Assembly: GCA_963701965.1 (NCBI GenBank)
Contig: OY969695.1
Span: 4,032,001-4,096,000 of the forward strand
Source: an uncultured Gemmatimonadales bacterium
GTDB lineage: Bacteria > Gemmatimonadota > Gemmatimonadetes > Gemmatimonadales > Gemmatimonadaceae
Length of the DNA: 64,000 bases
Direction: 5' to 3'
Made by a program: the position numbers and the translations under genes. The stretch's first letter is position 1. Each line of letters begins with the position of its first letter. A model generated the notes under the pieces. It did not search any database. It was not told the DNA's origin and worked only from the letters and a program-made list of their open reading frames with translations. Of this stretch, positions 28,673 through 46,289 are shown one piece after another.

Positions 28673-29719
28673 ATGTCAGGGGGAGCTATCGAAGTGAGAT
28701 CGGCGCTTCGCGTTTTGTTCGGATTGGCGGTGATGGTGCCCGGCGTGGCGTTGGCGGCGATACCGGCCGACACTGTGCGGCCGGACAGCGTCCGCGCCGA
28801 TACGGGGAGTGGCTCCGTGGTGGAGTCCTTCTTCGGTCGGAGCGGCAAGCTGCGCGCGCATTTCGTGTCCGAAGCGCGCCACCCGCTGGAGATTCCCCTC
28901 GTGCGGCGGCTGTTCGGCGACACGGCGACGGTGGCGGCGGGCGTCTACACGCTGCTCGACAGCGCCGTGGGGCGGTCGTTCGCGTTCATCACCATGATCC
29001 CGTTCACGACGAAGGCGCACGGGCGCATCGGCGATTATCGCGTCGGCTTCTGGCCCGCCGAGCGCCATCGCCAGCGCGCAGCGTGGAGCTTGGCGAAGCC
29101 AAGCTCAGTTCAACCGACAGCGTCCAATCGCGCGGAGCGCGACTTGGAGGCGTACGAGAACCCGGACGGCTTCATTCGCGTCACGTCGGACAACGAAGAT
29201 ACGCCCATCTCCGAGCACTTCGCGCTCCGCGACTTCCTGACGCACGATCAGGAGGACGTCTGGCCGAAGTATCTCGTGTTGCGCGAAGAACTGGTCGACA
29301 AGCTGGAACTGATTATGGACGATCTCCAGTCCCACGGCCACCCGGTCGCGCGGCTGGTGGTGTTGTCCGGGTTCCGGACGCCCGAGTACAACATCCAAGG
29401 CGTCGGCCGTCGCGGCGGTCGGGCGCTCGATAGTCGCCATCAGTTTGGCGACGCCGCCGACGTCTACGTCGACAACGGGTCCGGCCGCATGGCCGATCTC
29501 AATGGCGACGGACGCGTCGACACGCGCGACGTACGCGTCCTCATGGAGTCCGTTGAGCGCGTCGAGGCCGAGCATCCAGAGTTGGTGGGAGGGGAAGGGA
29601 TCTACCGCGCCAACCGGCAACACGGCCCGTTCCTGCACGTCGACGTGCGCGGCTGGCCCGCGCGATGGGCTCTTCTCGAGCCGACGCGCTCCCACAAGAC
29701 GCGGAGACATGCGACGTGA
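28673..29719 (+). CDS. peptidase M15A-like (D-Ala-D-Ala/DUF882) zinc peptidase with EF-hand-like loop
   Basis: SGFRTPEYN, SRHQFGDAAD, DLNGDGRVD, FLHVDVRG. Confidence 0.85.
   Translation: MSGGAIEVRSALRVLFGLAVMVPGVALAAIPADTVRPDSVRADTGSGSVVESFFGRSGKLRAHFVSEARHPLEIPLVRRLFGDTATVAAGVYTLLDSAVGRSFAFITMIPFTTKAHGRIGDYRVGFWPAERHRQRAAWSLAKPSSVQPTASNRAERDLEAYENPDGFIRVTSDNEDTPISEHFALRDFLTHDQEDVWPKYLVLREELVDKLELIMDDLQSHGHPVARLVVLSGFRTPEYNIQGVGRRGGRALDSRHQFGDAADVYVDNGSGRMADLNGDGRVDTRDVRVLMESVERVEAEHPELVGGEGIYRANRQHGPFLHVDVRGWPARWALLEPTRSHKTRRHAT
29086..29148 (+). repeat. palindromic element inside a CDS (hairpin-AGTTCAACCGAC-hairpin)
   Basis: GAGCTTGGC-gaa-GCCAAGCTC AGTTCAACCGAC agcg TCCAATCGCGC-gga-GCGCGACTTGGA; same architecture and 12-mer as the 46-kb repeat. 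Confidence 0.75.
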
Positions 29720-30033
29720 ACGAGCTGTTGCGGGAGCGGATCGACCGGCAACTCGACGCCTTGACTGACGAGCGCCTGTATCAGGTGCTCGATTACGTCG
29801 AGTTTCTGAGCTCCCGGTATGCGGAGCGGCAGAACCCATCGCCGAACGCGTTTCAGCGCTTCGCCGAGGGCGTCGAAGACCGGTTGCGCGCGGGGCGCAT
29901 TTCCACCGCGACCATCGCCGAGACCATGAATCTCTTGAATCGCGCCATGGGGGTACTGGGTGGAGTCGCGGCAGCTGGCAAGTCTGTTGCAACGGACTTG
30001 GTCGATGCCGTCAACAAGGAGAACAACAAGTGA
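29716..30033 (+). CDS. hypothetical protein (DUF2281-like N-terminus)
   Basis: LTDERLYQVLDYVEFL; GTG overlaps the upstream TGA. Confidence 0.65.
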   Translation: MNELLRERIDRQLDALTDERLYQVLDYVEFLSSRYAERQNPSPNAFQRFAEGVEDRLRAGRISTATIAETMNLLNRAMGVLGGVAAAGKSVATDLVDAVNKENNK

Positions 30034-30482
30034 CTGCCCATTCCCACGCCCACCGCCCGCTCCTGCGCGGCCCGCGCACCAAGAGCTCCACCGCGCGGAA
30101 GTCCGGTCGATCGCACACGATTCTGGACTCCCTCCGGCAGCTGCCGGCGTACGCCAGGCTCGTGACCGGACTCCTGGGCGACGCGCGCGTGTCGCCGGTC
30201 GACAAGGCGCTCTGCGCGGGCGCTGCCCTCTACATCGTCTCGCCCATCAATCTGATCCCCGACTTCATCCCCATCATCGGGGAGATCAATGATCTGTTCA
30301 TCGTGTTGATGGCGCTACAACATCTGGTGGCCAACGCCGGCGCCAATGTGGTGCTCGATCACTGGCACGGCGACATCGAGGAGCTCGAGCATCTCGATCT
30401 GCGTCGCGCATTGATCACGGCGGCGTTTTTCCTCCCGCGCCGATTGCGGCGCCGCCTGCGCGTGCTGGGGCGCGCGGACTAG
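30030..30482 (+). CDS. YkvA/DUF1232 membrane protein
   Basis: [22 protein letters not shown]. Confidence 0.85.
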
Positions 30483-30513
30483 ATTTCGCCCTGGTGGGGT
30501 CATAGGTTTTACC

Positions 30514-44951: not shown

Positions 44952-44959
44952 CGCCCGAT

Positions 44960-45565
44960 ATGACCGCCCCACTCGTCTTCGGGATCACCGGCGCCTCCGG
45001 CGCCCCGTATGCCGTGCGCGCGCTCCAGGCGCTCGCGGCCGCGGGGCAGCCGGTCGCCCTGATCATTTCGAGTCATGGCGTACGGCTGCTCCATACGGAG
45101 ATGGGTATCCAGACACTGGATGCGCTGCGCGAAGCCGTCGGGGGCGCGGCATGGGACCAGTGGGTGACCGTGCACGACGATCGGGATCGCGGAGCGGGCC
45201 CGGCGTCGGGATCGTTCGCCAGCGCCGGCATGCTCGTCTGTCCCTGCTCCATGGGGACGTTGTCCGCGATCGCGGCGGGCAGCTCGCGTTCGTTGATCGA
45301 GCGCGCCGCCGATGTGACGCTCAAAGAGCGCCGCCGCCTCGTGCTCGTGCCGCGCGAGACGCCGCTCAGCGAGATTCACCTGCGCAACATGTTGCGGGTG
45401 ACCCGCGCGGGAGCCGTCGTGCTGCCGGCCGCACCCGGATTCTACCACCGCCCGTCCACCGTAGACGCGCTCGTCGACTTCGTCGTGGCGCGCATCCTGG
45501 ACCACGTCGGCGTGCCCCAGTCGCTCGTGCCCCGCTGGGCGGGAACGATGCCGCCGTCGCGTTGA
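44960..45565 (+). CDS. ubiX: flavin prenyltransferase
   Basis: GITGASGAPY, ASGS, PCSMGTL, RETPL, PGFYHRP. Confidence 0.93.
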   Translation: MTAPLVFGITGASGAPYAVRALQALAAAGQPVALIISSHGVRLLHTEMGIQTLDALREAVGGAAWDQWVTVHDDRDRGAGPASGSFASAGMLVCPCSMGTLSAIAAGSSRSLIERAADVTLKERRRLVLVPRETPLSEIHLRNMLRVTRAGAVVLPAAPGFYHRPSTVDALVDFVVARILDHVGVPQSLVPRWAGTMPPSR

Positions 45566-46065
45566 CGGTCCACTGGATCGGCCTCATCTCCGACACCCAC
45601 GGATTGGTCCGGGCGGAGGTGCACACGGCGCTCGCCGGGGTCGAACTGATCTTGCACGCGGGCGACGTCGGCGGCGCCGCGATCCTCGACGAACTGTCGC
45701 TCATCGCGCCGGTCAAGGCCGTCGCCGGCAACACGGACGCGCCTGACGATGTTCGCTTGCGAGACGTGCTCGTCGAGACGGTCGATGGCCTGACCATTCA
45801 CGTGTCGCACGGCCATGAGCTGGGAAGCCCCACGCCGGCGGCGCTGCTCGCCCGCTACCCGGACCAGATCATCGTGTATGGGCACACGCACATCGCGCGG
45901 GTGGAGCGCGCTGGCGACCGGTGGGTCGTGAACCCCGGCGCCGCCGGGCCGCGCCGGTTCGGCGCGCGCCCGAGTGTGGCAAAGCTGCGGTTGGAAGGTG
46001 GGACGGTGGCAGTGGAGGTAATTTCGCTGGCGCTCCGCGCAGCGGAGCGCAGTTCAACCGACTGA
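45562..46065 (+). CDS. YfcE-like metallophosphoesterase
   Basis: ISDTHG, HAGDVG, GNTD, HGH, GHTH, NPG. Confidence 0.9.
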   Translation: MTVHWIGLISDTHGLVRAEVHTALAGVELILHAGDVGGAAILDELSLIAPVKAVAGNTDAPDDVRLRDVLVETVDGLTIHVSHGHELGSPTPAALLARYPDQIIVYGHTHIARVERAGDRWVVNPGAAGPRRFGARPSVAKLRLEGGTVAVEVISLALRAAERSSTD

Positions 46066-46289
46066 TCGAGCAGGTGCGTTGTTAGCACCTGGCTGGCGCT
46101 CCGCGCAGCGGAGCGCAGTTCAACCGACTGATCGAGCAGGTGCGTTGTTAGCACCTGGCTGGCGCTCCGCGCAGCGGAGCGCAGTTCAACCGACTGATCT
46201 AGCAGGTGCGTTTTTAGCACCTGGCTGGCGCTCCGCGCAGCGGAGCGCAGTTCAACCGACTGATCTAGCAGGTGCGTTTTTAGCACCTG
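46026..46289. repeat. tandem array of 4 x 66-bp double-hairpin units
   Basis: Units start at 46026/46092/46158/46224; units 1=2 and 3=4, and the pairs differ at 2 nt. Confidence 0.95.

Follow-up and report, generated by a model that had tools for sequence, protein, structure and literature searches.

Several described families of small bacterial repeats resemble the element considered here, a dispersed hairpin repeat followed up in a 64,000-nucleotide stretch of DNA (the window) from an uncultured Gemmatimonadales bacterium (contig OY969695.1, positions 4,032,001 to 4,096,000). Each unit, 60–75 bases long, consists of hairpin 1 with a 9-bp stem, a linker with the constant part AACCGA, and hairpin 2. 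We read it, with a probability of roughly 0.55, as a genus-specific repeat in which fold-back DNA synthesis would have copied the insertion site to make one arm of the second hairpin.

The RPEs of Rickettsia (PMC10969869, PMC3733652) are small palindromes, frequently found in frame within housekeeping genes that are unrelated to one another, and have no known mobiliser. The present repeat behaves likewise, being a dispersed palindrome that sits in frame in unrelated intact genes and is missing from their orthologues. The first RPEs are about 150 bp long and come from Rickettsia, whereas the present units are 60–75 bp, belong to a different phylum, carry no CGTC tag and are read in either direction and in several frames; the likeness is one of behaviour. 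In the available parts of the RPE accounts (PMC10969869, PMC3733652) a flank-derived arm is not mentioned. The GTAG REP, REPIN and BIME repeats (PMC3733652, PMC3116915, PMC3337134) share with our family a short GC-rich hairpin, an asymmetric conserved flank and a frequent position between convergent genes, and REPINs also form tandem arrays that include flanking bases (PMC3116915, PMC3337134). The long palindromes of REPINs are, in contrast, derived from excision of element DNA and not from the host flank (PMC3116915, PMC3337134). No fixed tetranucleotide was found 5′ of hairpin 1 on the strand carrying the GNA loops (the commonest occurs at 5/51 loci), and those at the hairpin foot on the other strand are AACT, GACA, GACT and GACC. 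Nor does an inverted doublet appear as the moving unit, 40 of the 51 loci being single and 11 being head-to-tail arrays.

In the CGTC REPs, or NTS-SRMs, the protein Ssn reads a hairpin and an unpaired flank on single-stranded DNA (PMC11893778). The layout here is the same and the stem of one subtype is like the NTS stem, but there is no CGTC tag, the loop has three bases, the conserved 3′ linker is long and there is a second hairpin; about a third of our loci lie in genes compared with 2% for NTS (PMC11893778). No cd10448-type single-domain GIY-YIG gene was found beside a copy in the two genomes examined for it (G000 and G003, introduced below). MITEs (PMC10969869, PMC3733652) are likewise non-autonomous and of similar size (60–75 bp here), with a short direct repeat at some junctions. 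Our units differ from MITEs in having no fixed terminal inverted repeats; the hairpins are internal and one of them is completed by host DNA. The repeated insertion sequence (IS) copies of the genome are segments separate from the repeat family.

IS200/IS605 elements pick their targets by base pairing and are not expected to leave target direct repeats. Here direct repeats are present at some junctions and no Y1 TnpA was found in 6/6 genomes of the genus. In integron attC sites an RYYYAAC end pairs with a GTTRRRY end; the linker of our repeat fits RYYYAAC but is unpaired or paired by chance, and the copies are not arrayed between cassettes. The double-hairpin elements and GC clusters of fungal mitochondria are organelle elements made of two adjacent GC-rich stem-loops, mobile and sometimes in frame, and are alike by description. 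In Rfam 15 there were no matches at gathering score within the window, and the repeat fails both the GTAG REP/REPIN and the CGTC REP/Ssn tests of tag, doublet and enzyme. An earlier note on this DNA had recognised no named family. We found no description of the repeat family or of a flank-copied element arm in the literature covered, from which subscription papers are mostly absent. The repeat is REP/RPE-like and selfish, with an in-frame behaviour that is known and an inverted target copy that is apparently undescribed.

Copies in the window and extent of the family

Five copies lie in the window, with hairpin 1 starting at 29086, 46030, 46096, 46162 and 46228 and a linker 12-mer at 29107, 46051, 46117, 46183 and 46249. 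With at most one mismatch allowed, the window holds 5 matches to the 12-mer where 0.15 would be expected, and 0/100 shuffles reach 5. The earlier note had described from the letters alone a hairpin family at 29086 and, fourfold, from 46030, with three compensated stem differences and a copy in frame inside a gene. These coordinates are as it gave them; the differences between the two stems fall at positions 2, 6 and 7, each with a changed partner.

The in-gene copy (plus strand) begins with hairpin 1 at 29086–29106, delimited by sequence and folding, which has a 9-bp stem and a GAA loop. It is followed by the single-stranded linker at 29107–29118, with its constant part AACCGA, and by hairpin 2 at 29120–29151, placed by orthologue comparison and folding. 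The end of hairpin 2, at about 29144–29151, consists of host L-E-A codons, which are paired by the arm at 29120–29127. The host is an M15-type peptidase gene (28715–29719, plus strand; start from our own gene caller, the longest open frame running from 28529) and is 20 codons (60 bp) longer at exactly this site than four same-genus orthologues of equal local length. The insertion is also missing in a fifth orthologue, which is 2 codons shorter. Orthologue comparison puts the net 60-bp in-frame insertion at 29085–29144 on the plus strand, with ends that can slide a few bases, and a 5-bp direct repeat at 29084 and 29145 flanks it.

The array occupies 46026–46289 on the plus strand and comprises 4.0 units of 66 bp with 98% matches. 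Its first unit supplies the last 12 codons and the stop of a YfcE-family phosphodiesterase gene (45562–46065, plus strand), which in relatives ends L-x-D-stop. At its other end the array abuts the stop of a small convergent gene (46291–46509, minus strand; start from our gene caller). Both window units fold as two hairpins as DNA (z −5.2 and −7.5; 0/200 shuffles as good), on either strand and as DNA and RNA alike, the RNA fold also being good.

In its genome (G000) the window is part of a single 5.12-Mb contig, C1, of 67% G+C; G000 was compared with five relatives of the same genus (G001–G005). A perfect 9-bp stem with a 3-base loop lies directly before the motif at 54 of 7160 places that match the linker motif with at most two mismatches; at each of nine shifted offsets there is at most 1. 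A strict filter gave 80 copies at 51 loci in G000, of which 40 are single, 5 double, 4 fourfold and 2 sevenfold. The arrays are all head to tail with periods of 62–69 (63 or 69 in frame, 62–68 between genes). When the description is loosened to a hairpin, AACCGA or AACCAA, and a long hairpin, 59/1922 motif sites satisfy it against 3–12 for six control motifs (995–3512 sites), and the set gains copies with two unique hairpins that retain AACCGA. The earlier note's picture of a dispersed non-autonomous element able to enter coding DNA is borne out by these numbers and by the empty orthologous sites described below. Of the three outcomes it had named as fatal to that picture none arose, since further copies, covariation and empty orthologous sites were all found.

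The pattern occurs in 6/6 genomes of the genus (67, 22, 3, 3, 2 and 1 times; reversed controls 0–1) and 0–1 times per genome in 300 other genomes of the phylum. A covariance-model scan, in which 32 candidates were scored per genome, gave matches in 4 of 146 family genomes: G000, G001 (20), G005 (10) and G023 (two, weak). A relaxed pattern was found 41 times in G000, 10 times in one other genome and 0–6 times in the remaining 259. In a genome collection, the labelled sequences with the element layout among the matches listed were Gemmatimonadaceae or Gemmatimonadales; one Desulfobacterales and one unlabelled record with 7/9 pairs, also among the matches listed, are at background level. The 13 matching metagenome stretches all lie on contigs resembling G000 genes, with no nuclease seen by eye. 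There were no matches in viral contigs, nothing in plasmids beyond 27-base matches at E 0.3, and no contig spanning either window copy in one DNA sequencing run that holds a small share of the genome; no RNA run was listed as holding it. The repeat family is real and genus-specific, and is not above background in the other Gemmatimonadota searched.

Across the family the invariant columns are a GC at the top of the hairpin 1 stem and, in the linker, a G followed further on by AACCGA. The earlier note had taken the whole 12-nucleotide flank to be invariant and the triloops to be GNA; both hold at the two window sites, whereas family-wide the 12-mer is exact in 16/51 loci, with only the G and AACCGA constant, and the hairpin 1 loop is GNA in 38/51. 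In 57 copies from five genomes, 7/9 pairs of hairpin 1 have changed on both sides, giving 69 covarying cells against 22.7 when shuffled (0/500 shuffles as high; slid controls pair 28–40%). These copies were picked for having the stem, which makes a percentage paired circular, and kin share changes.

Three subtypes can be told apart. In the GATC subtype, which holds most in-gene copies, hairpin 2 is topped by GC-GNA-GC; the CTAG subtype, to which the window array belongs, has a T-rich loop on hairpin 2; a three-hairpin subtype is frequent in G001, G003, G004 and G005. The tops of hairpin 2 are common to 12 dispersed loci (12–13 for the CTAG subtype) and to more than 20. When the last unit of each locus was folded, hairpin 2 reached down to 0–3 bases past the linker, with a base that varies by locus. 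The second hairpin, which the note had called different at the two sites, belongs to the unit, with an outer stem built in part from neighbouring host sequence.

We consider the repeat family very probably mobile. The pyruvate kinase gene is 63 bp longer than in 5/5 relatives, and the insertion is bounded by a direct repeat of 7 bp. A membrane protein gene holds a reversed unit and is 63 bp longer than 2 of 3 aligned loci, the third differing by 9 bases elsewhere. Insertions in G003 and G004 that are empty in G000 measure +68 (G003, with a 5-bp direct repeat), +72, +75, +75 and +66. At C1:3400018 one of four relative loci could not be aligned, and the ogt site is not colinear in 3/3 relatives. 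Possible signals of target-site duplication comprise the 7 bp at pyruvate kinase, the 5 bp at the G003 site and a weak overall excess; no direct repeat is visible at the glutamate dehydrogenase junction.

Our codon-based gene caller places 16/51 loci within open frames, 14 in sense and 2 in antisense orientation; one of these is probably in a read-through tail, and two further loci lie in frames by eye. Among the hosts are genes for pyruvate kinase, the M15-type peptidase, HisH, AlkA, Ogt, a TraG-like protein and an SNF2-like helicase, and the copies are read in several frames and in both directions. The part of pyruvate kinase that holds the insertion gives a poor, gapped alignment with a solved structure. 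Peptides of 20–25 residues have thereby been added to core enzymes (pyruvate kinase, HisH, AlkA and Ogt) in a 5.1-Mb genome of free-living size, not that of a reduced endosymbiont. Tested as reading frames, one CTAG unit is open in 2/6 and one GATC unit in 6/6, and the CTAG subtype sits at gene ends. Stops that face hairpin 2 are TAG in 16/18 cases against 29% genome-wide; the corresponding stop of relatives is TAG at the majority of the sites tested and TAA, TGA or elsewhere at some.

The loci are concentrated around the replication origin, 20/51 lying within 400 kb of it against 8.0 expected (p 4e-5); the origin is placed consistently by dnaA (C1:2.643 Mb), by the skew minimum and by a parS-like pair (2.612 Mb). 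Orientation to the replication fork is not significant (28/51). In four cases two copies lie close together on either side of metabolic or repair genes.

The mirror arm of hairpin 2

The outer 5′ arm of hairpin 2 is specific to its locus and is the reverse complement of the locus's own flank. To measure this, the register of each arm was fixed with its five outer bases left out; the pairing of these five was then scored with the locus's own flank and with swapped flanks. In the 49/51 loci where a register could be fixed, 135/245 positions pair, against 73.5 ± 6.9 with swapped flanks (0/20000). The signal is clear in the CTAG subtype (37/60 against 17.7) and in the other loci (34/55 against 18.2). 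An earlier swap test, in which the subtypes were mixed, gave 0/10000. Gene ends away from the element carry a mirror of at least 7 bases in 43/3684 cases, which is the level given by shuffling (40.8), and those beside an element in 13/46; the mirror arm is therefore not a habit of gene ends. In 13 loci of the CTAG subtype hairpin 1 and the linker are 91% alike and the five bases after the linker 28% alike. This likeness is too uneven for gradual point mutation to be a likely origin of the arm.

At seven gene-end sites the mirrored flank proved to be ancestral coding DNA. In the window array the arm of the last unit, TGATCTAG (46261–46268, plus strand), is the exact reverse complement of 46291–46298, which on the minus strand is the TAG stop and last codons of the convergent gene. 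Between them lies the element-borne top of hairpin 2, a 7-bp stem with a T-rich loop (46269–46289, plus strand). The flank is conserved in array-free relatives and kept in 4/5; in G004 there are just two overlapping stops. In the glutamate dehydrogenase gene an 11-base arm complements the G-I-Y-A codons, including the gene's own synonymous letters, and 4/4 relatives have the codons and no element. The arm matches 8/9 bases at groEL (looser set; flank present in 5/5 relatives), 13/13 at C1:2250181 (looser set; 4/4 relatives) and 8/10 at C1:3857231 (3/3 relatives). At C1:3025831 it mirrors a flank conserved in relatives, as it does, with weaker support, at C1:3378416.

The three inner units of the window array carry the same arm TGATCTAG, two of them with one change. 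Since inner array units carry an arm that fits the final flank, the mirror predates the array, and arrays are later and local. The data fix only that the copying of the arm happened once, early, before the array grew. Whether hairpin 1 too was copied from the target was also considered; this fits one locus (C1:3337431), fails at most others and was rejected.

We judge that the arm is in all probability of templated origin; given such an origin, the odds that it was copied at insertion are about even. The inverted target copy is the surprising feature; support for it is good as regards the pattern, not yet as regards a mechanism. The note had also held the structure to be selected. The stem of hairpin 1 covaries; the outer pairing of hairpin 2 is in part better read as templated copying than as selection on point mutations, a warning that perfect stem pairing in such repeats is not necessarily selection. 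Hairpin 1 with its linker offers a defined single-stranded substrate for finding the protein concerned, and the inverted target copy is a sequence signature to seek in other repeat families.

Several observations weigh against copying from the insertion site. In the GATC subtype the mirror is only weak (64/130 against 50.5 ± 4.4; 28/20000), it is not seen at several copies (C1:994550, 2676702 and 2731657) or, by eye, in the three-hairpin subtype of G001, G003, G004 and G005, and at one clean G003 insertion arm and flank agree at 6/9 bases. The relatives are about 70–88% identical and most junctions cannot be read to the base; at the peptidase copy the direct repeat is spaced 61 bp apart while the net insertion is 60 bp. 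The groEL gene has in 5/5 relatives a hairpin by or across its stop with neither hairpin 1 nor linker, and partial hairpins are present at the window-array site in G003 and G005. The TAG bias may come partly from the element supplying the stop, and relatives stop elsewhere at C1:3025831 and 3378416. Finally, the early steps of the scheme below, from recognition to copying, are drawn from sequence pattern, and their mobiliser was not found.

The small hairpin at the groEL stop differs among the relatives G001–G005 and lies ahead of the terminator. These hairpins may be decayed copies or native RNA structure.

How the arm may have arisen

Dispersal, empty orthologous sites, in-frame copies, a locus-specific mirror of ancestral host DNA and direct repeats at some junctions are observed. 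To account for them we suggest that a protein would read hairpin 1 and the unpaired linker on single-stranded DNA, and that the unit would then enter a short site resembling its own end, leaving a direct repeat of 5–9 bp. For one subtype the point of entry would lie immediately after a TAG stop, for a second it would be a site like GATC. The strand running from host into element would copy the small top hairpin, snap back, copy about 5–13 host bases backwards and return to the element template, which would produce the mirror arm. Slippage between direct repeats could later give the local arrays. Within genes, selection would retain units that are free of stops and a multiple of three long; at gene ends it would retain those bearing a stop. 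Candidates for the enzyme are a repair or replication protein of the host and a nuclease lost in the meantime. On the strand opposite the GNA loops a gene-end copy reads host codons, TAG, small hairpin top, inverted host codons, linker and hairpin 1, an order that fits a host 3′ end past the TAG that was extended on the element, snapped back, copied itself and returned. Each copy would record a part of its history in an inverted target copy, a short direct repeat and later arrays.

A bolder form of this proposal, which we put forward tentatively and think rather unlikely as a whole, is that of a new insertion mode. An enzyme-less element of 60–75 bases would be written by target-primed fold-back synthesis with an inverted target copy inside, so that each insertion would be a custom hairpin over a host stop codon. 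The driver would be a host protein or an undescribed nuclease reading the hairpin and AACCGA on single-stranded DNA, mostly near the replication origin.

Searches for a mobiliser were made with chosen profiles and among the neighbours of copies. The earlier note had pointed to recognition by a RAYT/TnpA HUH enzyme. This was not upheld: PF01797 (RAYT/Y1) matched in 0/6 genomes of the genus (67–95% complete) and in 6/14 controls, a Y1 protein too distant for the profile being possible, and no GTAG or CGTC tag stands before the hairpin on either strand. PF04986 (Y2, the transposase of IS91/ISCR elements) matched in 0/6 genomes, and in none of the control genomes either. With PF01541 (GIY-YIG) two long UvrC-like proteins and nothing small were found in each of G000 and G003; there are five further matches in G001 and one weak match each in G002 and G004, the flanks compared being those in G000 and G003. 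PF04480 (DUF559) gave a single weak match, within a frame of 1644 residues that is remote from any copy (C1:710 kb), and none in 4/4 relatives. No nuclease or transposase was recognised by eye among the neighbours of the 64 strict and loose loci (first 55 residues) or, with NCBIfam, among 17 host and neighbour proteins. The mobiliser may be an unrecognised protein outside the profiles and neighbours covered.

A UvrC/Cho-like GIY-YIG gene (46544–47662, minus strand) lies 255 bp from the window array; it is present in 5/5 relatives and so is read as housekeeping. Reverse transcriptases (PF00078) were rejected as candidates, as the two group II intron-like genes occur in G000 only and in 0/5 relatives, though G003 has 22 copies of the repeat. 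By eye, an island at C1:240–262 kb of G000 holds two group II intron-like reverse transcriptases, an IS110-like and an IS3-like gene and an error-prone DnaE-like gene; it looks foreign and is either transferred or a binning error.

The main rival to copying at the insertion site, which we hold to be unlikely though worth serious attention, is that a REP-like repeat inserts with a fixed arm, which replication template switching at the imperfect palindrome later rewrites. Selection on mRNA hairpins would keep the arm at gene ends, and no special insertion chemistry would be needed. Template-switch correction of imperfect inverted repeats has been proposed for bacteria (PMC5941160). In its favour, mirroring is most marked at the ends of genes and least marked inside them, good folds are obtained for the units as RNA as well, and the stop-side groEL hairpins of 5/5 relatives suggest RNA-level selection there. 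Such rewriting sits poorly, however, with the replacement of whole arms of 11–13 bases at glutamate dehydrogenase and C1:2250181, where there is no outer pairing for switching back. The rewritten stretch, moreover, always begins 0–3 bases past the linker, hairpin 1 and linker are still 91% alike, and gene ends in general show no mirror excess. In a single case, at the rbfA site occupied in four relatives, the flank of one has drifted while its arm has stayed as it was.

The copy at this rbfA site is common to the four relatives, replaces the gene start and overlaps the stop of the preceding gene; the site is empty in G000.

A second rival makes the arm a DNA guide that chooses the target by base pairing, as in IS200/IS605. 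It would suit the GATC subtype, which has near-constant arms and targets resembling them, for example at the pyruvate kinase site, and insertion just past TAG on one strand resembles the use of a fixed tetranucleotide target. In the other subtypes the arms are nearly all unique to their locus, which leaves no donor sharing the guide; together with the lack of a Y1 transposase match in 6/6 genomes, and with direct repeats at junctions that are contrary to expectation for IS200/IS605, this makes a guide improbable.

It is very improbable that the mobile part is hairpin 1 and the linker only, landing at the foot of pre-existing host hairpins. The groEL hairpins without hairpin 1, the partial hairpins at the array site in G003 and G005, and the copies of the wider family in which both hairpins can be unique while AACCGA stays would all fit. 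This idea is already largely refuted at the tested sites, as no hairpin 2 is found at the empty pyruvate kinase, peptidase and glutamate dehydrogenase sites or at the G004 array site, and the tops of hairpin 2 recur at 12 and at more than 20 dispersed loci.

An orphan motif related to CGTC REPs and Ssn, its small GIY-YIG nuclease lost, is suggested by the likeness of the GATC-subtype hairpin 1 to the stem of the NTS consensus (PMC11893778) and by the entry of CGTC REPs into genes, often repair genes (PMC3733652; here alkA and ogt), but is hardly credible given the lack of a CGTC tag, a triloop in place of the 4–5-base loops of the CGTC families, head-to-tail units in place of mostly inverted dimers, and only two long UvrC-like GIY-YIG proteins in each of G000 and G003, the genomes richest in copies.

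Related and neighbouring repeats

A distant relative of the family lies at 14613–14724 (plus strand) of the window and consists of an 11-bp hairpin, a TTCAAACCAA linker and a long hairpin (z −10.4). An arm of this long hairpin pairs with the beginning of the gene at 14718 rather than with a gene end.

Elsewhere in G000 two members stand back to back at C1:896579–896720, pointing apart, between YchF-like and ribosomal S6-like genes, the sole such divergent pair seen. A three-hairpin copy at C1:340740–340830 lies between two genes taken by eye for those of 23S and 5S rRNA, immediately next to the 3′ end of the 23S gene. A second family is made up of six elements of about 85 bp (C1:1967064, 2612493, 2613071, 2617976, 3418771 and 5059715). 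They have a constant centre, with a small hairpin and then an ACCGA-like motif, inside inverted arms that vary together, and three of the six lie within 6 kb of the parS-like pair.

At 53199–53378 of the window four 45-bp in-frame units lie in the N-terminal linker of a phosphoglucomutase-family gene; each forms an 8-bp hairpin over host-like codons and lacks the AACCGA linker. At this spot G005 and G002 have little or no insertion, and G001, G003 and G004 have differing repeat-like insertions. Unrelated to the family are about 30 copies of a 15-bp unit that lie at a gene start at C1:2591686–2592157 in G000.

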